DNA of 64,000 nt, taken from Planctomycetota bacterium. Lineage in GTDB: Bacteria > Planctomycetota > UBA8742 > UBA2392. The DNA is taken from contig JAOSKM010000001.1 in the NCBI GenBank assembly GCA_027493625.1, positions 382,416-446,415 of the forward strand, read 5' to 3'. This document shows, in pieces, positions 3,545-59,971 of the stretch. Position 1 is the stretch's first letter, and the number at the start of each line of letters is the position of its first letter. The notes under the pieces are model-generated. The model saw nothing but the letters and a program-made list of their open reading frames with translations. It was not told the origin of the DNA and made no database searches. A program made the position numbers and the translations under genes.

Positions 3545-3556
3545 ACTGGAGAGACC

Positions 3557-6159: not shown

Positions 6160-9100
6160 ATGTCGAAGCTTGCCTGGCCGGCCCTGCTGGCGGTGTTGTG
6201 TCTCATGGTCAGCAGCTTCCCGGACGCGCCTGCGCCCGTGCGCGCCGAGGACGAGCCGAAGAGCAAGGCCACCGACCGGCGCCCCATCAACGACCAGATG
6301 AGCTTCGATGAAGCGCGCGCCGCCATCGACAAGGCGGCCCGGGGCGATGACGAGGCGCTGCAGAAGCTGAAGGATGGCCGGCTGGCGTACGTGCCGCTGC
6401 TGATCCGCGACCGGCGCGGCGTCAACCTGGCCTACCAGCTGCTGCGCGAAGACATCGGCTGGGTGCGTGACATGCAGCGCTGGGAGGTGGCGCTCGGCAG
6501 TCTCAGCCCCAAGCTGATCGAGGACACTTACCGCGAACTGGCAGACCGCTTCCACCATGCCGAGGGCCAGCTTGCGCGCGCCTACATCAAGGCCTGGCAG
6601 CTCGGCGACTACGAGTGCGCGGGCAGGCTGGCGGGCGTGGCGCCGAAAAGCGGCTGGGTCCAGGCGGCACAGGCCTGGGTGGGTGCGATCAGCGAGCCGG
6701 CCGCGCGCGTCGAGGCGCTGCTGGGCCTGGAGCAGGAGATCTGGCTGGTCACCGACCTGTCGTACAGCATCTCGGTCGGCCGACTCGACGACGAGGTGCA
6801 GCGAATCCCTTTCGGCACCAACCAGTACGCCAGGGCGGAGGTGCCCCTGTTCTACGGCTCCGGTGGCGCAAGCGCGCTGTTGACGGTCCCCGTTGAATGG
6901 ATGTTCGGGGCGTACTTCGAGAAACTGGGCATCCTGACGCACGACCTGCCGCGCAAGCAGCGCGACGAGGTGATCGCGCGTGTGGAAAAGCTGACGGAGG
7001 GGGCCGCCTCCGGTTCGCGCCGCACCTCGTTCATGTACGGCGCGTTGTACGGGGAGAAACAGAGCAAGTACGAAGTGAACTTCGCGCTCACCCACGTCGC
7101 GCGCTGCACGCCCTGCATGGCGTACGCCGAGAACAACTACAAGGATCAGCCGCTGCCCCGCCGCATCAGCGCCATCTCGGCGTTCTGGGGCGCACCGGAC
7201 TGGGCGCCGGCCCAGGACCTGCTGCTGGACGAGGCCGTCCGTTCGGGCGACGAGACCTTCCTGCGCCTGGCGTCGCGCGCCGTGCTGTGCGTGAACGACG
7301 ACCGGCTGCGGGCAGTCAACTCGGTGGCACGGGCGCTGCGCGGCGCAAAAACGCTGGCGGATGAGCGCAAAGCCTTTGCCAGGGCGCTCAAGGACAGCAA
7401 GCACAAACAGTTGCAGGGCGTGGCCGCCTTCCTTGACGGCACCGGCAAGCTGCCCGCTGACAACGGCAACCCGGTCCTCAAGCTGACGACAGAGCAGAAG
7501 AGCGCGCTGCTGAAGCCCTTCCTGTACCCCGAGGAGATCACGGCCTACGGCGGCGAGCAGGCTGCCTACTTCATGAACCTCAGCCAGTTCCTGTTCGCCC
7601 AGCACCGCGTGATCGCGGCGATGGAGGCCGCTGCGCTCAGCATCGAGGCTGCCGCCAAGGGCAGCAAGCGGCGGCTGGGCCAGGCCAACGCCTACCTGAC
7701 GCACCGCACGCTGCGCCAGTTCCTGGGCCGCCAGGGCGTGAGCGAGTGGCTGGCGCCCTGGAAGGAGCGCTTCCCGCTGGCCGTCGAGATCCTGCGCAAC
7801 CAGGACCAGGCCAGGGAAGCCGCGGGCGAAGAGATTGAGGCCTCGATCTATGCCGTGGAACGCCAGTTCGGAGGCGGCGCAGAGGCCGGCGCCGAACAGC
7901 GCGAAGCCCTGGTGGAAGACGTTTCGCTGGCGGGCGGCTTCGGTGTGGCCGTGATTTCCCAGCTGGAAGGCGTTGATCTGAAGCCGAGCGAACGCGATGA
8001 GTTGCGCGAGAGGGCGGAGCTGGTCACGCCCTCGGACTGCCACCTGCACCTGTTCATGCTTCCGCAGAACGACTGGTTCGGGCGTTTCGCCTGGCGCGAC
8101 TGGACGCTCGCGGAGCACACGGTCCAGTGCCTGGCCCTGCTGCAGCCCTTCAACTGGATCACGCTGAGCCGGCTGGGCGCCGTGCTGGCCCGTGCCGGCT
8201 GCGACCCGCGCTGCATGTCGCCGCTGCTCACGCTGGCCCATGAACGCCCGATCCAGCCCTACGTCAACGGCCAGAGCGTCGCGGGCTTGCGGCTGATGCT
8301 TTTCAACCGCGGCGCCGTTTCCAACCTGCTCCGCGCCAACGCGGCCGTCAACGATCGCTTCATCTCAGACGACTGGAAGAAGTCCTACACCGCCTCGCTG
8401 GAACGCATGTCGTGGGGGCTGGACTGGTGGGACTCGATGTGCTGGGGCCCGCGCCTCTCGCCGCGGCCCGGGTTCACGGATGCGTGCTTCGATTACGAGT
8501 ACAACGCCCGCGACCGCGAGAACGTGAGCATCCTGCTCGACTACGCGCTCGAGCTGCAGGGCGTGTCGCCCAGCCGCGCGCTGAAGCTGGTGGAAGTATC
8601 CGAAAAGATCGGCGTCAGTTCCTACGGGCACTTCGTCGGCTCCCAGTCCTACATCCGCGCCAAGGCCCAGCTGGGCGACTACGCCGCCGCCATCAAGCGC
8701 TGGCGCGAATTGCGCGAAGGCGACACCGGTGTCCCCGCCTATCTCGACTACATGCTGCTCCACGGCCTGCTGGAGGGCAACCAGTGGAAGCACATCGGCG
8801 CCGCCCTCGATGAGGTCCTGGCCTACGAGCAGAACCAGGAAAGCGTGTACCTGACCTTTGCCCTGCGCCGCGCGCTGATGGCGGACGGCCGCCACTCCAA
8901 GGTCGCGGCCGTGAAGGCCCCGCACTGGGAACCGAGATCCGGCGATGCCTACGACGCAGGCAACTACACGGAAGTGTTCTACGAGGCGCGGCGGCTGTTT
9001 GAACGCGGCCAGCTGGAGGAGATCACCAGGCGTGCCAACCTGCTCTGGACCTGCGGCTGCGAGAACTCAATCGGCGTGATCCTGGATGCCATTCTGCTGA

Positions 9101-9531
9101 GGTCCCTGGCCGGCAAGCTCCAGGTCGACCGCGCGCAGTTCTTCGGACCCGACGACAAGGGCCTGCTGCACGCGGTCGCAGAAGTCGACCTGTGGTGGTT
9201 CCGCCGCAGCAACACGCTGGACTACCTTACGTTCGAGATCCTGGTCGGGCGCCGCAAGCCGGGGGACCTGCCGGCCATCAGCGACGGACTGACCTGGCAC
9301 GGCTTGCGCTTCGGTGAAAGGCCGCAGCAGTTCAAGGGTTCCGGCTTCCTGCGCGAGGGCGAAGCGCTGGCGCGCGACCGTTTCGTGCGCGGGGTGATCG
9401 CGTTCCTGGCCGACGACGAGAAGACGGCGCGTGCTGAGTTCCAGGCCTGCGTGGATGCGGACCAGCGCTGCAGCCACGAGTACCACATCGCCGAGTGGCT
9501 GCTCGACAAGCATCTGCCCAAGGGCAAGTAG
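6160..9531 (+). CDS. large secreted hypothetical protein, probably helical/TPR-like
   Basis: 1123-aa ORF with signal peptide MSKLAWPALLAVLCL; coding-like codon usage. Confidence 0.8.
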   Translation: MSKLAWPALLAVLCLMVSSFPDAPAPVRAEDEPKSKATDRRPINDQMSFDEARAAIDKAARGDDEALQKLKDGRLAYVPLLIRDRRGVNLAYQLLREDIGWVRDMQRWEVALGSLSPKLIEDTYRELADRFHHAEGQLARAYIKAWQLGDYECAGRLAGVAPKSGWVQAAQAWVGAISEPAARVEALLGLEQEIWLVTDLSYSISVGRLDDEVQRIPFGTNQYARAEVPLFYGSGGASALLTVPVEWMFGAYFEKLGILTHDLPRKQRDEVIARVEKLTEGAASGSRRTSFMYGALYGEKQSKYEVNFALTHVARCTPCMAYAENNYKDQPLPRRISAISAFWGAPDWAPAQDLLLDEAVRSGDETFLRLASRAVLCVNDDRLRAVNSVARALRGAKTLADERKAFARALKDSKHKQLQGVAAFLDGTGKLPADNGNPVLKLTTEQKSALLKPFLYPEEITAYGGEQAAYFMNLSQFLFAQHRVIAAMEAAALSIEAAAKGSKRRLGQANAYLTHRTLRQFLGRQGVSEWLAPWKERFPLAVEILRNQDQAREAAGEEIEASIYAVERQFGGGAEAGAEQREALVEDVSLAGGFGVAVISQLEGVDLKPSERDELRERAELVTPSDCHLHLFMLPQNDWFGRFAWRDWTLAEHTVQCLALLQPFNWITLSRLGAVLARAGCDPRCMSPLLTLAHERPIQPYVNGQSVAGLRLMLFNRGAVSNLLRANAAVNDRFISDDWKKSYTASLERMSWGLDWWDSMCWGPRLSPRPGFTDACFDYEYNARDRENVSILLDYALELQGVSPSRALKLVEVSEKIGVSSYGHFVGSQSYIRAKAQLGDYAAAIKRWRELREGDTGVPAYLDYMLLHGLLEGNQWKHIGAALDEVLAYEQNQESVYLTFALRRALMADGRHSKVAAVKAPHWEPRSGDAYDAGNYTEVFYEARRLFERGQLEEITRRANLLWTCGCENSIGVILDAILLRSLAGKLQVDRAQFFGPDDKGLLHAVAEVDLWWFRRSNTLDYLTFEILVGRRKPGDLPAISDGLTWHGLRFGERPQQFKGSGFLREGEALARDRFVRGVIAFLADDEKTARAEFQACVDADQRCSHEYHIAEWLLDKHLPKGK

Positions 9532-9581
9532 CCGTTGCCCGGCGCGGCCCCCGGCGGCAGGATGACCCCCGGAAGGAGAGT

Positions 9582-10415
9582 ATGCGCTTCCTGTGCCTGC
9601 TCCTGAGCCTGCTGTTGACGGGTCAAGTTTTGAGCGCCGGGCCGTTGGGGGATCGCTTGTCATTTGCCGTGCGGGCGGATGCGGGTCTGGACTTTGACGG
9701 CTTCGTGCGGCTGCGGCAGTTTTCGCTTGAGGGCTCGCGGCTTACGCTGCGCGAGGACCTGGGGCTGAGCCAGTGGACCTCCGGCGGCTTTGACTTCGGC
9801 TGGCGCTTTGACGGCCGCCACGCTTTGCGCGCGGGCTTCACCGGCACGCGCTTCCGCGGCCTGAACACGCTGGACCGCGAGGTGACCCACGAAGGCGCGA
9901 CCTACCCCGCCGGCACCCAGCTCAAACTCGATCGCAGCAGCTGGTGGCACGCGGAGGCCTGGTACCAGTTCACGCCCTGGCGCAACGAGCACGCCGAGCT
10001 CAACCTGCTCGGCGGCGTGGTGCTCGACCTGCTGGATGTCTGGGTGGTGCCCAACCCGCGCCCGGCCGATGCGCCGAAAGACGACCACGAGAACTTCGCA
10101 ACCGCCTGGCTGCCGCTGCCCGCGCTGGGCATGCGCCTGGAAGTCAGGCCCGTGGCGGGTTTGCGGCTGGGTGTCGAGGCGCGCGGGACGCACGTCGACA
10201 ACCTGTCCAGCTGGCACACCGCTGGCGGCCGCATGCGGCACAGCCAGACCAGCTTGGACGCGCAGCTTGAGCTGGGATATCGCGTGGCCGAGGTCGAGTT
10301 CGGCGTTGCGCTGCGCCACCGCGTGTTCCGCATCGAGCAGAACAACCTCGAGGACGGCAACGAGTTCAGCCTGCAAGGCACCCAGGCCGGCCTGTTCATC
10401 CGCGTGGTGCTGTAA
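9582..10415 (+). CDS. probable outer-membrane beta-barrel protein
   Basis: AAGGAG RBS, signal peptide, alternating beta-strand pattern ending GLFIRVVL. Confidence 0.7.
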   Translation: MRFLCLLLSLLLTGQVLSAGPLGDRLSFAVRADAGLDFDGFVRLRQFSLEGSRLTLREDLGLSQWTSGGFDFGWRFDGRHALRAGFTGTRFRGLNTLDREVTHEGATYPAGTQLKLDRSSWWHAEAWYQFTPWRNEHAELNLLGGVVLDLLDVWVVPNPRPADAPKDDHENFATAWLPLPALGMRLEVRPVAGLRLGVEARGTHVDNLSSWHTAGGRMRHSQTSLDAQLELGYRVAEVEFGVALRHRVFRIEQNNLEDGNEFSLQGTQAGLFIRVVL

Positions 10416-10417
10416 CC

Positions 10418-11584
10418 CTACTTCTTCAGGGCGGCGAGCTTTACGCAGAACTGTTCCCAGCCCTGGTGGAGGCTGCTGCGGTTCTGCTGGTCGTCGTTGT
10501 TTGGGTCGAAGCTGGAGTGCGTGATCGTCACCTTCACTCCCTCCGTTACTTCCTTGAATTCCACCACCACGTGCAGGGTGGGGGCTTCGGCCGGGTCGGT
10601 GTTCCACTTCCAGCTGAAGCCCAGCTTCCGGTTGGGCTCCCAGATTTCGATTTCGCCCAGCAGCTGCCAGACGATCTCGCCCTCCGCGTTGCGCCAGGCG
10701 GGCTGGTACTTGCCGCCTACCTTGTCGCCCACCTCGGCCTCCTGCGGCCACCACTTGGTCAGCCCCTCGGCCGTGGCCCACAGCTTCCACATCTCGTCGA
10801 GCTTGAAGCCGTGAAAGTCGGCCGTGAGCACCAGCCTGGTCTTGTCATCGGGCTCAAGCTGCTGCAGGAAGGGGGGCGCGGGCTTGAACAGGGCGTCGGT
10901 CTTCTCGCGGTGCAGCTTCATCAGGTTGCCGTCGCCCCAGTCGACCTGCACGATCTCGCGCGCGTCGTTGACCCAGATGGGCAGGGCTGGGGTCTTGGCG
11001 TGGCGCTGCATGGTGAACTTCCAGGCCTTGAGCTTGCCTTCCGGCAGCTCGATCTCTTCCTGGCCCACGCAGGCGAAGCTGGTGGCGCCGAGGTCCTTCA
11101 GATCCTGCGCCTCGTTGTACTCGGTGCGGCTGAACTTCGCGCCTTTGCGCAGCTCGGCGCAGGCGGCGAGGATGAAGCCCATGCCGGTGATGGCGTCGTC
11201 GGAAACCTCGGCGCGCAGGTCGTCAACGCCGGACTTGCCGACCATCACCTTGCCCTCGCGCGCGGCCAGCACGCGCCGTCCGTTGCTGTCGATTTCTGAG
11301 TAGCTGAGTTTCCAGTCCGCGTCGAAGCTGATCTGGCGGCTTTCCTCGTAGGTCCAACCCTCGCCGCTGATGTGCAGCTCCCACTCGCAGTGCAGGCCGT
11401 GCTGCCTGGTCTCGCTGAACTTCAGGTGCGAGTAGCCTTCGCTGCTGCCGTCGGGGCGGTACATGCCGTACCAGAACTCGCCCAGTTTCAGGCGCGTGAA
11501 CCCGGGCTTGGCAGGCTCGTCCTGGGCAACGGCGACGCTTGAGACCAGCAGCAACAGCGCGCAGGCGATCAGCAGGTAGTTCAT
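10418..11584 (-). CDS. secreted protein with C-terminal SRPBCC/AHSA1 domain
   Basis: Signal peptide; W...T.EGL.KWW, GG.Y, EPNRKL.FSW, V.VEF, HQGW motifs. Confidence 0.8.
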   Translation of the reverse strand: MNYLLIACALLLLVSSVAVAQDEPAKPGFTRLKLGEFWYGMYRPDGSSEGYSHLKFSETRQHGLHCEWELHISGEGWTYEESRQISFDADWKLSYSEIDSNGRRVLAAREGKVMVGKSGVDDLRAEVSDDAITGMGFILAACAELRKGAKFSRTEYNEAQDLKDLGATSFACVGQEEIELPEGKLKAWKFTMQRHAKTPALPIWVNDAREIVQVDWGDGNLMKLHREKTDALFKPAPPFLQQLEPDDKTRLVLTADFHGFKLDEMWKLWATAEGLTKWWPQEAEVGDKVGGKYQPAWRNAEGEIVWQLLGEIEIWEPNRKLGFSWKWNTDPAEAPTLHVVVEFKEVTEGVKVTITHSSFDPNNDDQQNRSSLHQGWEQFCVKLAALKK

Positions 11585-11640
11585 GGCGGGCTCCGGGCTG
11601 AGAGGGGCTGCAATGTTGTAGCACCAACCACGCGGCGTCA

Positions 11641-11712
11641 ACGTTGAAGTGGCACGTTGAAGTGGCACGGATGTCCTCATCCGTGCGGCATGGGTGGGGA
11701 CACCCATGCCAC
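11641..11712. repeat. REP-like double hairpin (GTGGCA...TGCCAC family) preceded by a 13-bp tandem duplication
   Basis: acgttgaagtggc x2; gcacggatg-tcct-catccgtgc; ggcatgggtg-ggga-cacccatgcc. Confidence 0.7.
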
Positions 11713-11716
11713 CCCG

Positions 11717-12754
11717 CTAGAAACCCTGGAAGGCGCGGTAGTTCTCGTGCAGGCCGGCGTCGATGGTGACGGCATCAGCCGGGCGGCGCGCGGTGGCCTT
11801 GGCCTCGCGGGTCGGCTTGCCCAGGCGCAGCAGCACCTGCGGGAAGCGCGCGCCCACGTGCTGCGCGAGGTCAAGGCGCAGGCGGTCGACCTCGACGGGC
11901 TGGTTCAGGAAGCTGGCCGCGAACCCGCGCCGCGTGGCCTCCAGCAGCAGGTGCTGCAGGGCCTCGCCGGTGCGGATCCAGTCGTCGTGGTGATCCGCGC
12001 TGGTGGAGAGCACGCACAGGGCGGGCGAGTGCTCGGCCAGGTCGCGGTCGCGCGCGGCGACGCCTTCGCCGATGTCAAAGGTGCGCACCACCAGCGGCGC
12101 CACCAGCGACATCAGGTCGCCGAACCCCAACGCGTAGCCGGGCATGCCGTCGAGGCTGCCGGTGCGGTTGTGGTGAAGCCAGCCCGCGAGCTCACGCCGG
12201 AAGGCGTCGCTGGCGAGCTGCTGTTTGTCGGCCTCGGCGACGCGCTCGGCGATGGCGTGGCGCGAGGCGTCGTCGCTGTAGCCGCGCAGGCTGACGGCGT
12301 GGGAGGCGCAGAGTTCCGCAAACGCGTGCAGGTCGGCGGCACTGACGCTGCCGGGCTGGTAGGGAAAGCGGTTGGTCACGCGCCGCGGGATCGCTTCGAA
12401 CAACGCGGCCAGGGTGTCGTGGCTGCCGGCCTTGGGGTCGATCGCGATGTTGACCAGGCGGTCTTCGTGGTCGTCCGGGTTGCGTTCAATGCTGAGAGGC
12501 ACGCCGAAATGCGCCGCCGCCACGCGCAGGTTGAACAGCGCGCTGCCGCACGAGATCACCAGTTCGCGGTCGTGGGGGTCGGCCACGGGCAGGCCGCGGG
12601 TGCGGTCGGCGTGCAGGGAGATGCGGTTGTCGTGGGTAATGAACAGCCACGGCTGCGAGTTGTGAGAGGACGGCGCCAGCACGGCGTAGTTCACCAGGAA
12701 GCGCAACTTCTCGAGGTCGCTGCCGTTGGCGGGAAAGTCGGCTTCGGTGGGCAT
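11717..12754 (-). CDS. Acg-family FMN-binding nitroreductase-like protein
   Basis: APSSHNSQPW, DP..RE..ISCG.AL.NL, RRVTNR, LNQPVE motifs. Confidence 0.9.
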   Translation of the reverse strand: MPTEADFPANGSDLEKLRFLVNYAVLAPSSHNSQPWLFITHDNRISLHADRTRGLPVADPHDRELVISCGSALFNLRVAAAHFGVPLSIERNPDDHEDRLVNIAIDPKAGSHDTLAALFEAIPRRVTNRFPYQPGSVSAADLHAFAELCASHAVSLRGYSDDASRHAIAERVAEADKQQLASDAFRRELAGWLHHNRTGSLDGMPGYALGFGDLMSLVAPLVVRTFDIGEGVAARDRDLAEHSPALCVLSTSADHHDDWIRTGEALQHLLLEATRRGFAASFLNQPVEVDRLRLDLAQHVGARFPQVLLRLGKPTREAKATARRPADAVTIDAGLHENYRAFQGF

Positions 12755-50879: not shown

Positions 50880-50956
50880 CGGGGCGTAGCTCAGCCTGGT
50901 AGAGCGCTTCGTTCGGGACGAAGAGGCCGCAGGTTCAAATCCTGTCGCCCCGACCA
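50880..50956 (+). tRNA. tRNA-Pro(CGG)
   Basis: Cloverleaf: CGGGGCG acceptor stem, anticodon arm cttcg-tt-CGG-ga-cgaag, GGTTCAAATCC T-arm, encoded CCA. Confidence 0.97.
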
Positions 50957-50961
50957 TGAAA
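50914..50961. repeat. att site, left (48-bp direct repeat)
   Basis: Identical to 59924-59971. Confidence 0.95.
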
Positions 50962-50964
50962 ATA

Positions 50965-50990
50965 GGGCTTCCGCAAGGAAGCCCGTTTTC
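50965..50990 (+). terminator. tRNA terminator supplied by the element
   Basis: gggcttcc-gcaa-ggaagccc followed by gttttc. Confidence 0.75.
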
Positions 50991-51021
50991 TTGGCACCAA
51001 GGTTTTCACCAAACTCGGGTT

Positions 51022-51861
51022 TTACGATCCCGCGTTGGCCTCGAGGCGCTTCTTGAGAATCTCGCCGCGCAGCTCTTCCATGTGGCGGCGCACCCACTGC
51101 ATATCCTGGTACAGGCGGTCAGGCACGCGCAGGGGAAGCTCCGGCATGCGCAGCCCGCGTAGGCGCTCGGCGGTGTTTTCGTTGACCTTGTCGATCACCT
51201 TCTGAAGTGCCGCATCGCGCTTATCTTCGCTCAACTTCTTCAGCTCGCGCGCCTCGCGTTCGGCGTAGAACGCCTTGAGGAATACCCGGCGGTTGGCTGC
51301 CTGAGCCTCAATCGCGGCGTCCGCTTGCGACTGCTCACCCAGCAGGCCGCTCACGCGCTCATCGAGCGCGGTGTCAAACACTTCCCCGGCCGTCTTCGCG
51401 CCGAGGCGGCGATTCAGGAGCTGGTACAGCAGCCGCCCGGCCGGGTTGAGAGGGTTGCGGCGGTAGAGGTCCGCCAGGCTTTCGTTGACCTCCTGGCGGA
51501 TCGCTTGCTTGATCGTCTTGCCGTCTTCGTGCGCCTCGAGCAGGGCGGAGCCTATTGCTGAAGCCTTGCCGATTCCGTACGCGGCGGCGTAGCCGATCAC
51601 GGCCGCTCCGCCGGCGCCGGTTCCCCGCGCGCGCGACATGACGGCGCCCTTGATGTCGCCCCGCAAGAGCCCTTCATCGAGCAGGCCGCGACTGCGCGCC
51701 TGGTCGATCAGCGAGCTGATACGCCCGGCCTGTTGCGTCTTCCGGCTTGCGACGTCGGCCTTGGCTGAGACGCTGTCCAGCTCGCGCGCGACTCGGCGCG
51801 CGCTGCTTACGGCGTCGCGCTCGTTGAGGTCCAACTCGACTACGGTGCGTTCAGTTCCCAT
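51022..51861 (-). CDS. hypothetical protein, paralog B (tape-measure/pilot-like composition)
   Basis: [12 protein letters not shown]..., Gly/Ala-rich hydrophobic segment, [19 protein letters not shown]. Confidence 0.75.
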
Positions 51862-52210
51862 GACGCTCTCCCGCCGGCAGGCCCGGCACAAGTCCTACAA
51901 GGTCGATCAGGTCCAGCGGTGACGCCTCCGGCACGGCCACCAGGAACCAGCGCCACGCCAGCATATCGAGCTCGCCGGCCTGCATTGCGAACAGCCGCGC
52001 GTCCTCCGCGATCTTGCAGGCGGGCTCCAGGTAGCTGCTCAATCCATTGAGCAGCGCGCCCAGCGTCGCGCCGATCACCGGCAGGCCGCCGACCACCAGG
52101 CCCATGGGTTCGGTCACCTCGCGGCCGTCGGTCACCATGACGCACAGACGCCAGGGGCCAACCGCGCGGTCGAGCGCATCAATGACGGCCTGAAGCTTGG
52201 CGGAGCTCAT
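51851..52210 (-). CDS. hypothetical protein
   Basis: Overlaps both neighbouring genes. Confidence 0.6.
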   Translation of the reverse strand: MSSAKLQAVIDALDRAVGPWRLCVMVTDGREVTEPMGLVVGGLPVIGATLGALLNGLSSYLEPACKIAEDARLFAMQAGELDMLAWRWFLVAVPEASPLDLIDLVGLVPGLPAGERHGN

Positions 52211-53064
52211 GCGCCAACCCCCGCGCCAAGGCGCACTTTCTGGATCGTGCCGCGCAGGCGCTCGCGCAGTTCCTGCTCCTGCTCGATGCGGCGCTGCAGG
52301 GCGGGCGTGAGCTTGGTCGGGAATGACACCGGCTGCAGACCGGCAAGGCGAGCGCTCACGGTTTCGTCGATCTTCTGGAACGCGCGCTCGCGTTCTTCCA
52401 GTCGGCGCTGACGCTCGCGGGCTTCCCGCGCCTGCTGCTGGTCGAACGCCTTCAGGAAGGCGCGGCGGTTGGCTGCCTGCTGGGCAATGGCGGCGTCAAC
52501 CGTGGATGTTTCCCCGGTGATTCCGCTGGATGCCAGATCGACGGCTGTGTCCCATGCCAGCCCGGCGCTGGTGGCGTTGTAGCCGAGCGCTTTGCTCACG
52601 GCCTGGTAGCCGAATCGGCCGGCCGGGTTGAGCGGGTTGCCCGCAACTACTCCCGCGACGGCGTGGCGTACTTTCTGGTCGATGTAGTCTGCGAGGAAGG
52701 ACGGAATGCCCCCGGCTTCGTGCGCCTCGATCAGGGCGGAGCCGGCTTCTCCGATGGTGCCCGCCGCGTAGGCGATCAGGCCAGCGACAAGGCCGGCGCC
52801 ACCGAACCTGGCCAGCTTACCGCCGGCAGGGATGCCGTTGAAGCCGCGTCCCGCGACGGTGGTGAGCAGGCTGGAGACGTTGCTCCCTCCTAGCAAGCCC
52901 TTGGCGTTGGCTTTCTGGAAGAGGCGGTCAACGCGCCCGGCCGTGTTTTGCGCGCGCTGAGCCTTGGCGGCCACGCTATCAAGCTCGCGGCTGACTCGGC
53001 GGGCGGAGGCTACGGCCTCGCGCTCCTGCATTTCCATTTCAACGACGGTGCGTTCGACGCCCAT
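52207..53064 (-). CDS. hypothetical protein, paralog A (tape-measure/pilot-like composition)
   Basis: MGVERTVVEMEM..., shares motifs with 51022-51861 along its whole length. Confidence 0.75.
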   Translation of the reverse strand: MGVERTVVEMEMQEREAVASARRVSRELDSVAAKAQRAQNTAGRVDRLFQKANAKGLLGGSNVSSLLTTVAGRGFNGIPAGGKLARFGGAGLVAGLIAYAAGTIGEAGSALIEAHEAGGIPSFLADYIDQKVRHAVAGVVAGNPLNPAGRFGYQAVSKALGYNATSAGLAWDTAVDLASSGITGETSTVDAAIAQQAANRRAFLKAFDQQQAREARERQRRLEERERAFQKIDETVSARLAGLQPVSFPTKLTPALQRRIEQEQELRERLRGTIQKVRLGAGVGA

Positions 53065-53066
53065 GA

Positions 53067-53789
53067 CTACCCCCTCAGCTTTTTTAGACGGAACATGATG
53101 CGCAGCAGGTCACGGCCTGCCAGGCGGCGGCGGGCGGATGCGCTCAGCTCGGACACCCACTTGTCATACTCGGCGTGGCGGGCCTTGCGCATACGGTCGA
53201 AATCGACTCGCGCCAGGCTGCCAAGCCCGCGGGCCTTCAGGTCCGCGAAGTGGTCGATGTAGTTGTTGACGCGGAACGAACGCCGGTTGGTGACCTGGTG
53301 TTTGATCCCGATCCCGACCACGGCGCGCTTGCCGTCGATCTTGCCGATGATGCGCTTGCCCGCCAGTGCCCGCAGGCTCTTGCCGACCGTTGCGCGGCCG
53401 GTGATCGTGATGTCAGGTATCTTCGGGTCGAACACGAAACCGCGCGCGGTCTTGGTGATGATGCGCGGGCTCTTCAGCGTCTTGAGCACGCCCTTGCGAG
53501 CGATGCCCCGGCGCGAGTCGAGCCCGAGGCGCTTTTTGCGCTTGCCCCACTTGTCGCCGTATGGCTTCACCTTCTGCAGCGCCCCGCTCGTGTTGGCGTA
53601 CAGGCCCAGCCGCTCGTATCGCGCGGCGAACATCTTGGCGATGGTGCGGGCCTCGAGCTGCATGGCGCGAAGCAGGCGGCGCCGCAGGGCGCGCAGGGCG
53701 GCGTCGAACTCGCGGACTTCACGCGCGGCGCCCATGGCGGCGCGGCGGAGATCCCCGAGGTCTCTTGCTGCTTTGCTCAGTCCTGCCAT
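53067..53789 (-). CDS. highly basic hypothetical protein, possibly virion morphogenesis/tail-completion-like
   Basis: GAGG RBS; Arg/Lys-rich; KPYGDKWGKRKKRLG segment. Confidence 0.65.
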   Translation of the reverse strand: MAGLSKAARDLGDLRRAAMGAAREVREFDAALRALRRRLLRAMQLEARTIAKMFAARYERLGLYANTSGALQKVKPYGDKWGKRKKRLGLDSRRGIARKGVLKTLKSPRIITKTARGFVFDPKIPDITITGRATVGKSLRALAGKRIIGKIDGKRAVVGIGIKHQVTNRRSFRVNNYIDHFADLKARGLGSLARVDFDRMRKARHAEYDKWVSELSASARRRLAGRDLLRIMFRLKKLRG

Positions 53790-53874
53790 AGGTGCCTCTT
53801 CCGGTGCGTCCTTCTGCCTGTCGCCCTGGAGCCCGCTATTTTGCGCCCTCCGGGGTGGGCTCCGTATCCGTTCA

Positions 53875-54120
53875 TCACGGGGTCAGGCCGTGCTCCCGCA
53901 CTTTGGTCAGGTACGCGGCGTCCAATTCCTCGTCGGTCATCAAGTCGAACTTTCGCCGGAGTTCGGCAACGTTGGCTTGCGACGTGCGCGCGCACTGCAT
54001 GAAGCTCGCGCGGGCTTCCGGTGGCAGGCCTGCCACGGCGTCAGCCAGCGCGCCGGCCCGGTGCAGTGCGTTCGCAAGGCGGGTGAACAGCTCGACTTGC
54101 TGTTGACGCGTCAACTTCAC
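53875..54120 (-). CDS. hypothetical protein
   Basis: GTG start overlapping the upstream stop (GTGA). Confidence 0.6.
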   Translation of the reverse strand: MKLTRQQQVELFTRLANALHRAGALADAVAGLPPEARASFMQCARTSQANVAELRRKFDLMTDEELDAAYLTKVREHGLTP

Positions 54121-54380
54121 TCCAGGCCCTCCAATAGCCGGGCGAACACGTCCCCGACGTCCTGCGGCAGCAGGTACTTGCTCAGCCACGCGCGCGCGGC
54201 GGCGTCGCCGGCCTTGGCGTCCTGCAGGGCCTTGGCTACGACTTTCTGCCAGTCGGCGGGGCTGACCGTGGCGAGCGTCGCGTCCAGGTAGGCGCGTTCG
54301 ACTTCACGCTTCGGGCGCCCGGGACCGCCGGGGTTGCCCTTCTGGAACGGGCGGCCTCTCGGTTTTTTCTTCGCTGCCAT
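54117..54380 (-). CDS. DUF5681-like / terminase small subunit-like protein
   Basis: GRPFQKGNPGGPGRPKR and A..GD..A..WL..YL motifs. Confidence 0.7.
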   Translation of the reverse strand: MAAKKKPRGRPFQKGNPGGPGRPKREVERAYLDATLATVSPADWQKVVAKALQDAKAGDAAARAWLSKYLLPQDVGDVFARLLEGLE

Positions 54381-54552
54381 TCGCGTTTTGCTCCGCGTCT
54401 AAACGTACAGCCCCGCGCGACATAGTTGAGCGGTGGCAGGTGGTGGCGTCCTGCCACCGACTCAACCGCGCACGCCTCGGGCGTGCTACTGGTGGCCGGG
54501 GTTGGGCTCGCGCCCCGCGCGGGAACCGGACCCCCGCGCCCCCGGCCGTGGT

Positions 54553-55416
54553 CTAATTTCGGCGCGCCAGGCGCGGCGGGAACAACTCCCGCAGCTTGTC
54601 GCTGAAATCGCGGCGCTGCGGGCGGATGCCCGTCTCTTGCATCGCCTTGTCCGTCTCGGCGTCGCCGACTTCGCGCAGGTCACGAATGCGCAGGGGGCGG
54701 CCGTAGACGGCGCGGCCGTTTTCGTCGAGGCTGGGCAGCTTGGCGTAGCCTTGACGGGTCAACGGCACGCGCTCAGCCGTCGCGCCCTGGAGCACCTCGT
54801 AACCTTGGCCGTCGCCGCCGATCACGCGGAACTGCGGGCGCCCCATGGCGTCGGCAGACACGGTGTACTGGAAACCGCGCGAATCCTGGACGATCACGTC
54901 GAGCGACGGGTCCAGTTCCGCCACGATCTCGGCGGCTGCGCGCAGGCCGCGCAGGCCAGACTCGACCGGGAACCACGCCTGGCGCACGCCGTCAAAGCCT
55001 CGCACCAGGACAGTGTGACTCAGGCTGTCGGACCAGTCTTCATGAGGCGCGCGGGCCGTCACCAGCGGTCCGCGGCGGACTGTGACGTCCAGGTTCTGGA
55101 TCTCGGCGTCGGTGGCCTCAAGCTGCTTGCGCAAAGCCACCAGCTCGGCGCCGGCTGCCTCGCGCTCGATCAATGACGCGCGGGCAAGGCGGGCCTCGGC
55201 CTTGGCGACTTCCCCGAGCAGGTTGGCGCGGCGGTCGGTTGCGGCGTCGAGATCACGCGACGCGCGGGCGTGGACCAGGTGGTCCACCAGGTTGAGGTCG
55301 CCGGCCTGTGTGGCGGCCTCGATGCGCTGGTCATAGTCGCCGGCTGCGCGTGCCTGCTGTGCGGCGGCCTCGCGTTCTGCGGCGGTGGCGGGTGGGGTTG
55401 GCTGATTCGTGTTCAT
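54553..55416 (-). CDS. hypothetical protein with N-terminal coiled coil
   Basis: GGAG RBS; 287-aa ORF. Confidence 0.7.
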   Translation of the reverse strand: MNTNQPTPPATAAEREAAAQQARAAGDYDQRIEAATQAGDLNLVDHLVHARASRDLDAATDRRANLLGEVAKAEARLARASLIEREAAGAELVALRKQLEATDAEIQNLDVTVRRGPLVTARAPHEDWSDSLSHTVLVRGFDGVRQAWFPVESGLRGLRAAAEIVAELDPSLDVIVQDSRGFQYTVSADAMGRPQFRVIGGDGQGYEVLQGATAERVPLTRQGYAKLPSLDENGRAVYGRPLRIRDLREVGDAETDKAMQETGIRPQRRDFSDKLRELFPPRLARRN

Positions 55417-55467
55417 GCGTGGCTCCGGTTCGGGTTTGAAATTGAAATGTGCGAGTCCCTTGACGGG

Positions 55468-55815
55468 TCAAGTGTAGTATTTCCGGCTGCTCGGCTGCGC
55501 GGGCGGCATGGGGCGCGGCGGCAGGGCGTCCAGTTCCGCGCGCAGGCGCTCGACTTCGGCTGCGTCGCTGTCTTCGCGGGCGCGCCTGAGCGCGAACTCG
55601 ACCTCACGCCGGATGCGCGTGAGCTGCACTGCCTGCTCGCAATTCTTCTGCGCGATGTAGACTGTGACGTGCTCGGGCCCGTGGTGGCGGCGCATGGCTT
55701 CTTTGTGCGCCTTCCAGGCGTCGCGCACCTGCTGGACCTCACGCTCGGCTGCCTCGGCTTCGCGTGCCGCTTCCGTGGCGCGCTGCTGGGCTTTGAGTTC
55801 AACTGGGTTTCCCAT
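55468..55815 (-). CDS. hypothetical coiled-coil protein
   Basis: AAAGGAAA RBS before ATG 55815. Confidence 0.65.
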   Translation of the reverse strand: MGNPVELKAQQRATEAAREAEAAEREVQQVRDAWKAHKEAMRRHHGPEHVTVYIAQKNCEQAVQLTRIRREVEFALRRAREDSDAAEVERLRAELDALPPRPMPPAQPSSRKYYT

Positions 55816-55867
55816 GGGTTTTCCTTTTTTTGGTGACATTCTTGGTGACCGGCAAAGCCGGTCCGCT

Positions 55868-56125
55868 TCAATTGTGGGTTCGTGAACCTCTCGACGTTCG
55901 TGGCTCACGAACAGCCCCGCTTGCTGGCTGCCTGAGCATCCAGTCAGGCGTCACCCGGCGGCGGTCGGTGATGCCCAGCTTGCGGGCGTAGATCCGGAGG
56001 CATTCCTCGGTCATGGCGCCCGGCCTGCCCTCGCGGATGGCCTGGGCCAGCTCCACGTCGGTCAGATCTTCAAGCGGCCGGGTGTCGGTCAGGTCGACAT
56101 GGTCGGTTGTGAAGAGGTTGTTCAT
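55868..56125 (-). CDS. hypothetical protein
   Basis: ATGA overlap with the rep stop codon. Confidence 0.6.
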   Translation of the reverse strand: MNNLFTTDHVDLTDTRPLEDLTDVELAQAIREGRPGAMTEECLRIYARKLGITDRRRVTPDWMLRQPASGAVREPRTSRGSRTHN

Positions 56126-56985
56126 GCGCTCTCCGCTTCCTCGCGCAATTCCCGCTGATAACGCGCGATCTCCTGTGCGGGTGTTTCTCGTGGAGCTTGC
56201 GAGCGCGCTGCCCTCCTACACCACCGCTCAAACGCGCCAGTCTGCGCAGGCGGCCCGGCTTCCGCGCGCCTGGCCATTGCTCGCCCTGGGCTTCCAATCC
56301 CGGCGAAAGCAGCCTCACCGGCAGCCGCACGGGCCTCAGCCTCCGCTGTGACGGCTTCCAAGCCGTGTGCGTCGATCAGCTTTTGAAGTTCGTTCGCCGA
56401 CGGCGTCCGGCCGCAGTGCACGTGAATGAACTTTTCAAGTTCCACCGCCGCCGCCCTGGGGGTGGTTGGTGGCTCTGGTTCAATGGCTATGGTTTGGTCG
56501 CCACCGGTGGCACTACCTACCTGCCACGGGTGCACTACCCTCTCGCCACCGGTGTCGCTACCTAGTGCGCCGGTGTCGCTACCTAGTGCGCCGGTGTCGC
56601 TACCTAGTGCGCCGGTGTCGCTACCGCTGTTACCTAGTGCGCCGGTGTCGCTACCTAGTGCGCCGGTGTCGCTACCCCAAAGTAGCTTGTAGAAGTTGCT
56701 GTCCGGCTCGTTGGTGCCCGCCTTTGTACGCCTTTCGCGCTTCAGCCACTTGGCGGCTTCCAGCTCGTCTATCGCCCGGTCCACGCTTCGGACGCTGCAG
56801 CCGGCCCGCTTGGCCAGGGTGTTGCGCGAGGGCCAGCACTCGCGCCGTTTGTTCGCGTACCTGTCCAGCAGCGCCCAGACCCGGATTGCTCGGTCGCTCA
56901 ACCCGGAGTCAAGAAGCCGCTCGGGCACGATGGCGTAGTGCCCGCCGACGGGAGATATGGATGAGGATGTAGGATGCTCAGCCAC
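56122..56985 (-). CDS. phage-type replication initiator (HTH_36-like winged helix)
   Basis: LS..A.RV...L..YAN....CWPSR.TLAKR.GCS.RSV.RAI.ELE...WL...R; internal tandem repeats. Confidence 0.82.
   Translation of the reverse strand: MAEHPTSSSISPVGGHYAIVPERLLDSGLSDRAIRVWALLDRYANKRRECWPSRNTLAKRAGCSVRSVDRAIDELEAAKWLKRERRTKAGTNEPDSNFYKLLWGSDTGALGSDTGALGNSGSDTGALGSDTGALGSDTGALGSDTGGERVVHPWQVGSATGGDQTIAIEPEPPTTPRAAAVELEKFIHVHCGRTPSANELQKLIDAHGLEAVTAEAEARAAAGEAAFAGIGSPGRAMARRAEAGPPAQTGAFERWCRRAARSQAPRETPAQEIARYQRELREEAESA
56549..56676. repeat. 21-bp tandem repeats (probable origin iterons) inside rep
   Basis: Six copies of core CCGGTGTCGCTACC; unit ccggtgtcgctacctagtgcg; one unit carries a 9-bp insertion; encodes GSDTGAL. 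Confidence 0.9.
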
Positions 56986-56995
56986 CCAAGCGCTC

Positions 56996-57235
56996 CTACT
57001 TCTCGTTCACAACGATGTAGCGCGCGAGTTCAGCCCGGCGGATGCGCAGCCGGTTCCCGATCCTGAACGCCACCAGGTCACCGCGCGCGGCCATGCGGTT
57101 GATTGTCTTCGGGTTGTCCAGGCCGAGCGCCTTCGTGGCCTCCGCCGGGGTGGCCACCGCCGGTACGCCGGCGGCGGCGAGCTCCGCCTCAATGTCCTTT
57201 TGGCGGGCTTTGGTGGCAGTTTCGTGCAGACTCAT
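56996..57235 (-). CDS. excisionase-type HTH (HTH_17) protein
   Basis: TPAEA..ALG....TI.RM..RGDL.AFRIG..LRI.R.EL; AGGAGG RBS. Confidence 0.85.
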   Translation of the reverse strand: MSLHETATKARQKDIEAELAAAGVPAVATPAEATKALGLDNPKTINRMAARGDLVAFRIGNRLRIRRAELARYIVVNEK

Positions 57236-57530
57236 AATAACCTCCTGTGGTCTGCGCGGATTAGTAACAACGCTCACGACACCTTTTGAAGGTGAACAGC
57301 CCCAGCAGGCGCAGGAGTGCCGCACAAGTGCCTGTCAAGGTTGTTTATAATCCCGCTTGGTGGTACAAAGATGCCCGCGAAGGCCGGTGAATCGGGCCTT
57401 CGCGGGCTATTGGGCGCGGCGTGCCTTGTGTGACAGGCTGCGGGATTTTCAGGGATCGCGCGACAACTTTTCCTCCGAGATTTCCGCCGAGTCCGTTTCG
57501 GGGTCTCTTGTCGACGCATGATCCCTTCCG

Positions 57531-57872
57531 TCACGGAAGCCTTGCCCCCGGCTTCCAGTGCCGCGGCTTGACTCGGCACCGAATAATCCACGCCTCCACG
57601 TCGCTGGGCAGGACGTAGAACCACGCCGATTCAGCCGGCCCCGGTTGCGTAGCCGGCAGCTCGCCGCAAAGGATGGCCTTGCGCAGCAGCTTCACGCCGA
57701 GTCCTGTTCGCCGCGCGGCCTCGCTCAAGGTGATGTGCGGCTCGTCAACGTAGCCCGGCACCTGGCACTTGTGGACGCGCCAAATCAGGCGCTCGAGGTC
57801 AGAAACGGGCACGCCCAGCAGGTTGGCGATCTTCTCAACGATTTCAGCGTCTTTGATCCGGTGCGTTTTCAT
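57531..57872 (-). CDS. excisionase-type HTH protein
   Basis: ITLSEAARRTG.....LRKAI..GELPA......WFYV...DVEAW. Confidence 0.75.
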   Translation of the reverse strand: MKTHRIKDAEIVEKIANLLGVPVSDLERLIWRVHKCQVPGYVDEPHITLSEAARRTGLGVKLLRKAILCGELPATQPGPAESAWFYVLPSDVEAWIIRCRVKPRHWKPGARLP

Positions 57873-58069
57873 CACCAGGCCCTCCGCTTCACGCGTCTGG
57901 ATTCAAACCAGGCGTCGATATCCGCGCGGGTGCAGAAGTACGGGCTGCGCGGCCCCATGCCCAGGCGCATGGCCTTGAGGTGTCCGCGCCCAACCGCCGT
58001 CCTGAGCGTCTTCTGCGGCAGCCCCAGCTCGGCTGCCCATTCGCTGATGCGCTTCACTTCGGTTGTCAT
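57872..58069 (-). CDS. excisionase-type HTH protein
   Basis: ISEWAAELG....TLR.AV.RG.LKA.RLG......F..RADIDAW. Confidence 0.75.
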   Translation of the reverse strand: MTTEVKRISEWAAELGLPQKTLRTAVGRGHLKAMRLGMGPRSPYFCTRADIDAWFESRRVKRRAW

Positions 58070-58077
58070 CACGTCCT

Positions 58078-58347
58078 CTACTTCCCGGCCGCGTCGATGG
58101 CGGCCTGCAGGCTGTCGCGGCAAACCAGGAAGGCATGTGCTCCAATCTTCACTTCAACAAAGTCGGCGCGGTGGCGAGCCTCGCGCGCGGTGCGGATAGT
58201 CAACTTCGCCGGCAACTCCGGTTCGTCCGCGCCGTCGTAATAGCTGATGTCGCCGATGTAGACCGCGTGCAGGTCCACGTCCACAAAAACGCGGCCGGTG
58301 CCGGGGTTCACGGATGATTCGCGGGGGTTAGTATTCTGTGCAGCCAT
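58078..58347 (-). CDS. hypothetical protein
   Basis: AAAGGAG RBS; 89-aa ORF. Confidence 0.65.
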   Translation of the reverse strand: MAAQNTNPRESSVNPGTGRVFVDVDLHAVYIGDISYYDGADEPELPAKLTIRTAREARHRADFVEVKIGAHAFLVCRDSLQAAIDAAGK

Positions 58348-58417
58348 GATGATGCTCCTTTCATCGTTGTGGTCAGGGCAGGCGGGAAGCGCCATACTTC
58401 CAGCCTGCCCGCCTTGT

Positions 58418-59769
58418 TTAGTTAGCTGCCTCCAGCGCCGATGCCTGCCGCTGGATGTAGCCGAGGTCCTGCAGCAGCTCGCGCAGCTCATCCGCCACGC
58501 CAAGCCATTCCTCGACCGTTTGTCCGCGCTCGCGGATGCCATGCAGAGCGCGCCGGTAATGGGTGATGCTGACGTTCTGGGTGTGCCCGAACCTGAATTG
58601 CAGCAGCCCCTCGCCCTCAGGTGAGCCGGCGGCAACGTGTGCAACCGTGGTGCGCCGCAACATCTGCCGGTTGACCTTGCTCCGCGTTATGCCGAGCTCA
58701 TCCTCATACAGCTTCACGCGCGCGGACACTGCCAGCCGCATGACGCGGTCGCGCTTCACTCTGCCGACCAGCGCACCGCCAGCGGCGCGCAACTTCAACG
58801 ACGTGACCAGTTCGCGAAGCAGCGGCGAGTCATGCAGCGGGATCTCGCGCTCGGCGTTCGTCTTGCTCGCGTGAACCAACACGTTGCCGTGACCAAGACG
58901 CACATCGTCCGCCGTCAGCGCTTCGATCTCCCCGGGCCTGCAGCCTGTCAGCAGCGCCAGGGCGAAGTACGGCGCCAGCGGCTTGCGCTGTCGAGCGACG
59001 GACTGCTCAAACTCCTGGACTTTGCCGGCCTGCGGGCCACGGGTGACGTGGCGCCTGACCTTGGCCTTCACGCCGGCTTCCCGACGTCGGAGGGCGTCGA
59101 TCATGCGCAGCAGTTCTTCGCGGTCGAGGATGAGCGGCTTCTTCCGCTCAGTCTTGTAGTGCTTCAACGCCTTGCCGGCCTCGCGGGAGTCGAAATCGAT
59201 GTAGCGCCGGTCAATCATGAAGTTTACGGCAGCCCTGGCGGCGTCCAGAAACCGGTTGATCGAGCTGTTTTCCAGCCGGCCTACTTCGCCGAGCTCGGCC
59301 CGGTAGTCGTCGAGATCGTCCACGGTCAGGCGTTCACACCTCTTCGCGCCAACGAATGCCACGAACGGCCGCAGGTGCTGCTCAAGACGGGCCTTGGCGC
59401 GCGCCTGGTACTCTTCACCGCGATCACGGCGTTCAAGCAGAACATGCTCAACGTAGACTGACAGGGCATCGGCGACGGTGGATCGCGGCCGGTTGTGCTT
59501 GCGCCTGTGCCTGTCCCGCCGCGTCGCGCTCACCAGGTCTTCGGACTTCCGCCTGGCGAGCCTGACGGCCTGCTCGCGCGTGGTCACGTCATCCGCCAGG
59601 CGTTGCCACTCGTAGCGATAGTCGCCTTCCGCCCGACTAACACGCCACTTCAGCCAGAACGCGCCACGGCGCTTGACGATGCTTACGCCTGGGTGCTTCC
59701 GGTGAGACTCCGCGGAGTACCCCCTGAGTGCTTTCCCTCGCCGGCGTCGACCTTCTTCTTCCTGGCCAT
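58418..59769 (-). CDS. tyrosine recombinase/integrase (apparent frameshift at 59720-59724)
   Basis: LLTGCRPGE, SKT, QMLRRT, FGH, THY; the frame stays open upstream through HPGVSIVKRRG.FW; ATG 59769 joins if G5 is G6. Confidence 0.88.
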
Positions 59770-59781
59770 GCCCTACCCCCG

Positions 59782-59805
59782 TGGCACCAAACTTGGCACC
59801 AAACT
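59782..59805. repeat. probable integrase arm-type sites (TGGCACCAAACT x2)
   Basis: Tandem 12-mer; degenerate tandem pair at 50992-51015 near the other att. Confidence 0.7.
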
Positions 59806-59923
59806 ATAGGGTATTTCGGTGCCGTTTGGTCCCTCAAAGTCTGAGATAACAAGCACAATACAAACGGCGGCAAGCGGTGTAGCAGCCGAATGGCTACGAC
59901 CAAGAACATGGGTGCGTTCGTTC

Positions 59924-59971
59924 CGGGACGAAGAGGCCGCAGGTTCAAATCCTGTCGCCCCGACCATGAAA
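59924..59971. repeat. att site, right (duplicated 3' part of tRNA-Pro)
   Basis: Identical to 50914-50961. Confidence 0.95.

Follow-up and report, generated by a model that had tools for sequence, protein, structure and literature searches.

The 64,000-nt stretch of Planctomycetota DNA analyzed here (the window; the genome of its host is designated G000) carries a 9-kb element inserted at a tRNA-Pro gene, and we conclude with moderate confidence that this element represents a new phage-satellite family of Planctomycetota that is tied to a specific helper phage. Sequence comparisons suggest this in several ways: the integration modules of related elements are exchangeable, late genes of the candidate helper have been retained and duplicated, one branch of the family carries a scaffold fragment, and a phage of the same host shares with the element a unique putative cis site. 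The family is so far known from a single genus of Planctomycetota. Positions are window coordinates unless a genome or contig is named.

A preliminary description of this DNA had reported a 9.0-kb element between identical 48-bp att repeats. A repeat search recovered both copies as exact matches, with an insert length of 9,010 bp between them. The left copy consists of the 3' end of the tRNA, the only one that ARAGORN detected in the window, plus 5 nt, and imperfect similarity extends ~35 nt past the repeat at both ends, across the GGGCTTCC..GGAAGCCC hairpin. We found the corresponding empty site in G342, a genome of the same genus, where the tRNA-bearing left flank (90% nt identity, ending at C15:273157) and the right flank (94%, starting at C15:273150) lie 6 bp apart, so the 9-kb insert is precisely absent there. 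The insert is a discrete integrated mobile unit. In genomes G282 and G381, this tRNA-Pro(CGG) is followed at a distance of ~1.7 kb by another att-like copy (91-93% identical), and in G381 the first ~50 nt of the element are repeated after each att-like copy. These extra copies indicate that the site has been used repeatedly, as an integration hotspot with small remnants or mini-elements. An Rfam scan detected nothing besides the tRNA. At three intergenic positions (54538, 59719, and 59923), contigs from independent sequencing runs showed a single-base insertion or deletion relative to the window. Either minor misassembly of the window's genome or variation among strains may account for these.

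The element contains 15 credible genes, all intact and all on the minus strand in the order given in the preliminary description, and it lacks a divergent repressor gene (Table 1). We scanned the encoded proteins against Pfam (E<=0.1), PHROGs (E<=0.01), NCBIfam, and PADLOC. Family matches were limited to a tyrosine integrase, three helix-turn-helix (HTH) proteins of the HTH_17 family, an HTH_36 replication initiator, and a sub-threshold DUF5681 match for orf10; eight of the 15 proteins had no match in Pfam, PHROGs, or NCBIfam, and the NCBIfam scan returned nothing beyond the Pfam and PHROGs results. The earlier observation that capsid, portal, TerL, lysis, relaxase, primase, and helicase genes are missing held across all four scans, none of which produced a match to such a family. 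PADLOC found no defense gene, only weak HTH matches. The HTH_17 proteins had Pfam E-values of 1e-6, 2e-5, and 2e-9 and also matched phrog_66, "excisionase and transcriptional regulator"; no Phage_AlpA match was listed for them. The initiator, likewise described earlier as phage-type, additionally matched phrog_391, 678, and 345 "O-like" and has no primase or helicase domain, and 21-bp iterons within its gene mark a candidate origin.

We drew phage contigs from IMG/VR with alignments of the element's basic protein and of its par proteins, which are encoded by two paralogous genes. One of these was IMGVR_UViG_3300048837_001192 (G001), a tailed temperate phage of 46,344 bp with a 127-bp terminal repeat that encodes an Sf6-type terminase small subunit (TerS), TerL, a major head protein (phrog_283), RecE/RecT, an SNF2 helicase, RusA, and an integrase. 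A homologue of the basic protein (55% amino acid identity) is directly followed in G001 by a par homologue (39%) and then by open reading frames (ORFs) of 83, 483, 670, and 1047 aa. The same basic-par block is present in phage contigs L021 and L022, downstream of genes for a portal (phrog_145), a scaffold (phrog_206), and a major head protein (phrog_212), and the order across the block, in aa, is ~440-560, ~184, basic, par, ~70-83, ~460-480, ~660-670, and ~910-1090. From their position in these three phages, we assign basic and par to the late region that contains the virion genes. The other element genes were all missing from G001, L021, and L022, so the element is not a deleted copy of any of them; collinearity with a full prophage, which the preliminary description had named as a result that would speak against a satellite, extends only to the two-gene basic-par block.

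The CRISPR array of the host links G001 to the same bacterium. This array, which comprises 68 repeats (37-nt repeat unit) and 67 spacers directly after cas1/cas2 (G000:C2:37051-41799), contains three spacers that match G001: one at 34/34, one through a 29-nt exact run of 34, and one at 30/33. They occupy three of the four positions closest to cas2, indicating a recent encounter with this phage type. None of the 67 spacers matched the element or the other loci compared, and none of ten loci in related genomes with short element matches lay within a CRISPR-like array. G001-like DNA is also present in the 4.7-Mb host genome (6 contigs, 87% complete): a region at C2:1130612-1133640, near a contig end, contains fragments matching the end of the G001 TerL gene and its neighbor at 78-86% nt identity, and 173 nt at C3:195161-195333, 94% identical to G001, adjoin a TerL-like gene (C3:196752-197930; 7.7e-35). 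Both regions appear to be prophages or remnants of prophages. On the 24-kb contig G000:C4, positions ~2322-12422 include a TerL-like gene (phrog_2, 1.3e-26) along with stretches weakly similar to the large late proteins that G001, L021, and L022 encode distally. This contig may be a phage, resident or co-assembled, which would make it a further helper candidate.

Apart from the basic and par coding regions, the element and G001 share a single significant nucleotide match, a 32-mer. In G001, as read from the alignment, the 32-mer precedes by ~20 nt the start of a ~105-aa ORF, and terS comes immediately after that ORF. The element copy is in the widest of the internal intergenic gaps, 44 nt downstream of the hth2 stop, and is followed on the transcribed strand by a hairpin, hth3, the initiator gene, the rest of the operon, and the terminator-like hairpin at 50984-50965. 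No further copy was found at up to 7 mismatches in the host genome or the other loci compared. At up to 2 mismatches the 32-mer occurred in one of 401 Planctomycetota genomes, as the copy in this element, and in IMG/VR its 24-nt core was restricted to two contigs, G001 and a 99.99% identical contig from a sibling sample. We infer that the 32-mer is a candidate cis site for helper late-gene control, whether through an activator, a sigma factor, or antitermination; it could instead be recognized during packaging.

The preliminary description had named the lack of any similarly organized element elsewhere as a result that would refute it, and we found such elements in two other genomes. In G204, another species of the genus, a second ~9-kb element extends over two contig ends (one of them the metagenome-assembled contig JAJVIO010000090.1). 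Its insertion site is tRNA-Leu(AAG), whose 3' end is repeated over 62 bp at the far end of the element, and its integrase, a 471-aa tyrosine type, is unrelated at BLAST level to that of the window element. Amino acid identities between the two elements are 81% for orf7, 73% for orf8, 81% for orf9, 87% for the basic protein, 88% for orf14, 61% and 30% for the par copies, 76% for hth2, 68% for hth1, and 32% for orf2. The initiator is 64% identical in its C-terminal part and differs in its N-terminal half and internal tandem repeats. The G204 order is tRNA-Leu repeat, integrase, initiator, orf7-orf8-orf9, contig break, basic, par (30%), orf14, and par (61%); on the far side, hth2, hth1, and orf2 run convergent to the par block, up to the intact tRNA-Leu. 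The par gene is thus duplicated in both elements. The ratio of nonsynonymous to synonymous substitution (dN/dS, Nei-Gojobori, window element versus G204) was 0.12-0.54 in all nine shared genes tested, with dS of 0.3-1.2, indicating that these nine genes are real and under purifying selection.

A more distant element in G381 spans 8.8 kb between exact 29-bp repeats. It shares the initiator N-terminus (50%, HTH_36), an hth3-like gene, and a par-like gene (26%) with the window element, and it encodes three tandem tyrosine recombinases and a 164-aa head-scaffolding homologue (phrog_206, 1.2e-17) that is shortened relative to the 255-aa scaffold of phage L022. On a 2.35-kb contig from a fourth genome of the genus (L026; G187:C152), an orf10-like gene (52%) lies ~600 nt upstream of the start of a G381-type par-like gene at the contig end, and this contig is another fragment of the family. 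Three tandem tyrosine recombinases, 45-59% identical between the two genomes and with an HTH_17 gene nearby, were also seen at G000:C1:1541649-1544788 and at L017 6963-10083; their layout resembles that of recombinase-in-trio elements. The host genome contains no second copy of any element gene.

These relatives bear on whether the element could be the decaying remnant of a full-size prophage, with head, tail, and lysis genes deleted and the rest drifting. Decay would be compatible with the collinearity of two genes with a phage late operon, with the G001-like fragment at C2:1130612-1133640, and with the remnant-like appearance of the tandem att-like copies at the same tRNA-Pro in G282 and G381, but we regard it as quite improbable. 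Both att copies are still identical over 48 bp, all 15 ORFs are intact, and the same ~9-kb composition recurs in a different species under selection, with another integrase and tRNA target. A shared core that is kept while the integration module is exchanged is not a pattern that independent decay would yield. Basic and par aside, the element genes are missing from the three phages discussed above. Queried in full by megablast, the element matched nothing among GenBank phages or PLSDB plasmids, and tblastn of orf10 and the basic protein, the only two genes tried, gave none against GenBank phages. A scan of JGI metagenome contigs with par and orf9 alignments did not yield a confirmed relative.

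The preliminary description had also assigned the element its own TerS, and this assignment was not supported. No protein of the element matched a terminase family, and the gene that had been called TerS-like, orf10, has only a weak DUF5681 match (19.5 bits). Its 52% identical homologue in G133 scores 41.6 bits for DUF5681, above the cut-off. In the literature searched, the term DUF5681 occurred in one paper, according to which the virion proteome of a Salmonella phage includes such a protein (PMC8954984). The neighboring orf11, which probably starts at the GTG overlapping the orf10 stop, shares 44% identity over its final 25 aa with the C-terminal end of G001 TerS (single-pair E 1e-4), a likeness that is suggestive only. 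It had no relative except itself among 5.8 billion proteins, and complex prediction for G001 TerL with orf11 gave "no answer" (score 0.00 in both runs), which speaks neither for nor against binding. Homologues of orf10 (49-52%) were also seen in other small islands, at 9724-16074 of L045 (G133:C1:672268-692267) and at 9979-17014 of L044 (G220:C1). The order there is an integrase (471 or 549 aa), HTH_17, a 779-952-aa protein without a Pfam match, a 119-200-aa protein, and the DUF5681 protein, and these islands may represent a second family of satellite-like elements within the bacterial family of the host.

Fold searches with the orf9 model returned only generic coiled-coil hairpin matches, with no Foldseek match at E<=1e-3 in PDB or BFVD, and ESM Atlas gave nothing usable for this protein. 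We considered orf9 as a relative of a phage scaffold or of a 263-aa protein of G381, and hhalign showed no relation to either. The basic protein (AF2 model, pLDDT 76) had as its best VIA-align match the SaPI1 neck chain 9mu2_P (Z 6.0, rmsd 4.0, 103 residues). Foldseek found no match for the same model, and PDB sequence profiles gave nothing meaningful for the basic protein or par. The par family comprises 8 clusters among 5.8 billion proteins and occurs in three of the 401 sampled Planctomycetota genomes, all of one genus; the two paralogs in the window are 44% identical to each other, and both, like orf14, have hydrophobic segments. One par relative, P0004 (60% identical), is found on 10 contigs, the longest of 9,329 bp, approximately the size of the element, and this contig could be a free or circular form.

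Could the element be a complete, very small, non-tailed temperate virus, for example, a membrane-bound pleomorphic one, built from the par paralogs, orf14 as a membrane protein, and the basic protein as a DNA-binding component, so that no helper is needed? Its 9 kb, one-strand gene order, integrase, and initiator would suit such a virus, as would the very basic protein, the three proteins with hydrophobic segments, the eight proteins without a family match, and the element-sized contig of P0004. We nevertheless hold this explanation to be very improbable, given that the basic and par homologues lie inside the late operon of tailed phages with genes for TerS, TerL, portal, scaffold, and HK97-type head proteins and that a tailed-phage scaffold homologue is present in the G381 relative. 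Nor did we find a packaging ATPase, lysis, or extrusion gene in the element or a jelly-roll or HK97-like fold in the two modeled proteins (orf9 and the basic protein).

Of the 24 public runs listed, which stem from 13 metagenome studies of bioreactors, sludge, and biofilms, 20 contained DNA of the element; five of the entries may be the source sample, and no RNA run was listed among those carrying it. Several observations from these and other searches weigh against a helper-dependent satellite. In the Logan contigs of four bulk-metagenome runs, the depth of the element equaled that of its flanks (in X1, 50.4 versus 48.5 and 46.3; in X7, 20.6-28.5 versus 27.2 and 29.2). Since these contigs break at the 48-bp att repeats, they cannot display a circular or empty-site joint; the equal depth is the picture of an integrated, uninduced single copy and is compatible with rare free forms. 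IMG/VR contained no element-like contig: the par and basic searches gave phage contigs only, and the narrower orf9 alignment gave none. In the 87% complete host genome, G001 was represented by short fragments only and was not found as a prophage. No direct sign of excision, replication, or packaging was seen in the four runs. The 32-mer, a putative cis site, is common to one phage genotype only. No terminase small-subunit family was matched by the element proteins in Pfam or PHROGs; the sub-threshold match of orf10 is to an uncharacterized family, DUF5681, and the likeness of orf11 to TerS spans 25 aa only. The SaPI1 neck match of the basic protein falls, at Z 6.0, below the tool's stated background level, and the nearest named ESM Atlas cluster of par, a tape-measure fragment at rank 12, is a weak lead only. 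As for the virion-associated proteins that the preliminary description had postulated, the basic and par homologues lie in a tailed-phage late operon, and a place in virions is deduced only from gene position.

Much of this would suit an integrative plasmid-like or mobilizable island that moves without helper virions, whether by vesicles, transformation, or an unknown conjugative helper, and that carries its phage genes as cargo, for example, for superinfection exclusion or membrane functions. The firm annotation is limited to an integrase, three HTH_17 proteins, and an initiator with iterons, orf14 and the par proteins have hydrophobic segments, and the small islands of G133 and G220, which combine an integrase, HTH_17, and a DUF5681 gene, lack par and basic altogether; the uniform depth and the missing TerS match fit as well. 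We consider such an island rather unlikely all the same. Matches to a relaxase, coupling protein, FtsK-like translocase, or partition gene were absent from the Pfam, PHROGs, and NCBIfam scans. Moreover, purifying selection has kept par and basic alongside the core in two species, each of the two elements has a duplicated par, the truncated head-scaffold homologue of the G381 relative has no obvious use beyond capsid assembly, and phage-independent cargo would not be expected to have a unique 32-nt site in common with the region upstream of terS in a phage of this host.

We therefore return to a satellite with a G001-type helper and propose the following model for its life cycle. A G001-type temperate tailed phage (46 kb) would infect the host, and its late-gene control would act on the 32-nt site that the element shares with the region upstream of the phage terS operon. 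Because the long operon from hth3 and the initiator gene to par follows the 32-mer and hairpin, it would be switched on or read through. The element would excise by means of its integrase and one of the three HTH_17 proteins, replicate from its iterons, and be packaged in particles made by the helper, on which packaging would depend. Its basic and par proteins, perhaps together with the DUF5681 protein and orf11, would replace the helper versions or bias assembly or packaging toward the element. More tentatively, we raise the possibility that this is the first Planctomycetota satellite family with a mode of hijacking undescribed for the P4, PICI, cfPICI, PLE, and PICMI families. A copied 32-nt cis site ahead of the replication-to-par operon would tap the helper's late-gene switch; in place of a capsid-size factor or classical TerS, the element's own duplicated versions of two late proteins from the neck, tape-measure, or ejection region would rebuild or re-address the particle for a 9-kb genome; and integrases and tRNA targets would be swapped among members, with a truncated scaffold in one branch.

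Table 1. Features of the element and its integration site (window coordinates unless a genome is named)
Feature	Position	Strand	Basis and remarks
tRNA-Pro (anticodon CGG), integration target	50880..50956	+	ARAGORN; Rfam RF00005, 67.9 bits; 3' 43 nt within att repeat
attL, left copy of 48-bp direct repeat	50914..50961		Repeat search, family D4, 100% identity, spacing 9010
Terminator-like hairpin (8-bp stem, then T run), end of long operon, just inside attL	50965..50984	-	Terminator scan; similar hairpin after attR
par paralog B, 289-aa ORF	51022..51891	-	Start probably MGTERT methionine at ~51861 by alignment; 30% to G001 homologue
orf14, 119 aa, one strongly hydrophobic segment (KD19 maximum 1.96)	51851..52210	-	No family match; 88% to G204 copy, dN/dS 0.12
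par paralog A, 285 aa	52207..53064	-	Helical N- and C-terminus, Gly/Ala-rich hydrophobic center; 39% to G001 8635-9570
Basic 240-aa protein, K+R 62, D+E 20	53067..53789	-	Homologue directly upstream of par homologue in three phage types
orf11, 81 aa from GTG overlapping orf10 stop	53875..54120	-	ORF open to 54189 (81-104 aa); database form 81 aa only
orf10, 87 aa, DUF5681-like small basic protein (previously "TerS-like")	54117..54380	-	Pfam 19.5 bits versus cut-off 27.5
orf9, 287 aa	54553..55416	-	Model: long coiled-coil hairpin (residues 12-115) and small beta domain; rare family
orf8, 146-aa ORF, start uncertain	55468..55908	-	Reading frame confirmed by G204 homologue (73% over 115 aa, dN/dS 0.27)
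orf7, 85 aa	55868..56125	-	No family match; 81% over 37 aa in G204
Replication initiator, HTH_36 winged helix like lambda-O/DnaD-type phage initiators	56122..56985	-	PF13730 1.4e-14; phrog_270 "replication initiation protein" 1.6e-19
Candidate origin, six to seven 21-bp iterons inside initiator gene, encoding GSDTGAL repeats	56538..56697		Repeat search
hth3, HTH_17 excisionase/AlpA-type	56996..57325	-	Pfam, PHROGs; likely start ATG at ~57235 behind AGGAGG
13-bp GC-rich hairpin with weak U tract, between 32-mer and hth3	57373..57407	-	RNA fold, minimum free energy -60.1 kcal/mol, z -3.1; absent from terminator-scan list
32-nt site common with phage G001 (26621-26652)	57456..57487	-	30/32 nt, same orientation relative to genes, pairwise E 3.8e-7
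hth2, HTH_17 protein	57531..57875	-	Pfam, PHROGs; 76% to G204 copy, dN/dS 0.20
hth1, HTH_17 protein	57872..58123	-	Pfam, PHROGs; 68% to G204 copy
orf2	58078..58440	-	ORF open to 58644, real start probably near integrase stop; 32% to G204 over residues 68-186
Tyrosine integrase, 389 aa	58418..59587	-	PF00589 5e-11; phrog_1 4e-18
attR, right copy of 48-bp repeat	59924..59971		Repeat search
tRNA-Pro(CGG) and second att-like copy	G282:C35:28398-30238; G381:C55:70904-72695 (L028)

Phage satellites are known mainly from Proteobacteria and Firmicutes. Our literature search found no paper pairing Planctomycetes or Planctomycetota with phage satellites. The abstract of the SatelliteFinder survey names Actinobacteria as the sole novel taxon, and the string "Planctomycet" is absent from its main text (PMC10085698). 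The element and G001 offer a concrete satellite-helper candidate pair from an understudied phylum in wastewater and bioreactor communities, and the three independent links between them (late genes, cis site, and same-host CRISPR memory) make this pair directly testable. If the relationship is as we suggest, it would add a new satellite replication type, based on an O-like initiator with internal iterons, and possibly a new hijacking module consisting of copies of helper late-operon genes, and it would give several orphan protein families their first biological context.

Among described satellites, PICIs have a median of 9.5 kb and 15 proteins (PMC10085698), and the element, with 9 kb and 15 genes, is equal to this median in size and gene number. 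It is likewise integrated between att repeats, with the order integrase, small HTH regulators, replication module, and phage-related genes, and it has no other structural or lysis genes. At most two of the five PICI components are present: the integrase and, only loosely, the HTH regulators, whose PICI counterparts are homologues of alpA, merR, or stl. The primase-replicase is absent, the initiator being instead a lambda-O-like winged helix with iterons in its gene, and neither a TerS family nor a known capsid-morphogenesis family was matched in the window element; a phrog_206 scaffold homologue is found in the distant G381 relative. We take the shortened scaffold homologue of G381 to resemble the SaPI CpmB strategy. 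The element further differs from PICIs in that all its genes lie on one strand without a divergent repressor, its host phylum is Planctomycetota, and its homologues of two helper late-operon genes are in no PICI marker set.

The markers of P4-like satellites given in the same survey are Psu, Delta, Sid, Ash, and an alpha primase-helicase next to integrase and AlpA (PMC10085698). The element resembles these satellites in its ~10-kb size, its integrase at a tRNA, and its AlpA-type HTH, whereas the Pfam and PHROGs scans returned no match to any of these five markers (Psu, Delta, Sid, Ash, and the alpha primase-helicase). P2 Ogr and P4 Delta act on each other's late promoters. A comparable cross-talk with helper late transcription, here via the shared 32-mer, is a likeness in our proposed model only. 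The element is unlike cfPICI in lacking matches to major head, portal, protease, and connector proteins, and the orf9 and basic-protein models have no HK97-like fold. PLEs are described in the survey by 15 Vibrio markers, including capR, repA, nixI, and lidI, and are reported there only from a few Vibrio (PMC10085698); our PHROGs and Pfam scans, in which PLE-specific profiles were not used, found no PLE-related families in the element. AICE-like elements, the integrative conjugative or plasmid elements of actinomycetes, differ in turn, as no FtsK-like translocase or relaxase was matched in Pfam, PHROGs, or NCBIfam.

The initiator is akin to lambda O/DnaD-like initiators with the origin in the gene, given its HTH_36 and "O-like" PHROG matches and the tandem iterons in its coding sequence, and in the G204 element the iterons change together with the N-terminal half of the initiator. 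It differs in that no P-like helicase loader gene adjoins it, and the origin is a candidate. In its workings the element is most like the VEIMEs, a comparison made by description and not by sequence; these virion-encapsidated integrative mobile elements are described as small integrative elements of marine plankton, mostly with tyrosine integrases, without a major capsid gene, some with plasmid-like initiators, and with many genes that lack homologues, in gene sets unlike those of P4, PICI, or PLE (PMC9618062). VEIMEs are defined there by concatemers inside virus particles, whereas the element is known from bulk-metagenome contigs. With phage satellites in general, the element has in common the lack of core virion genes; mobilization by a helper phage is proposed, and the candidate helper is indicated by CRISPR spacers, two shared genes, and the 32-mer.

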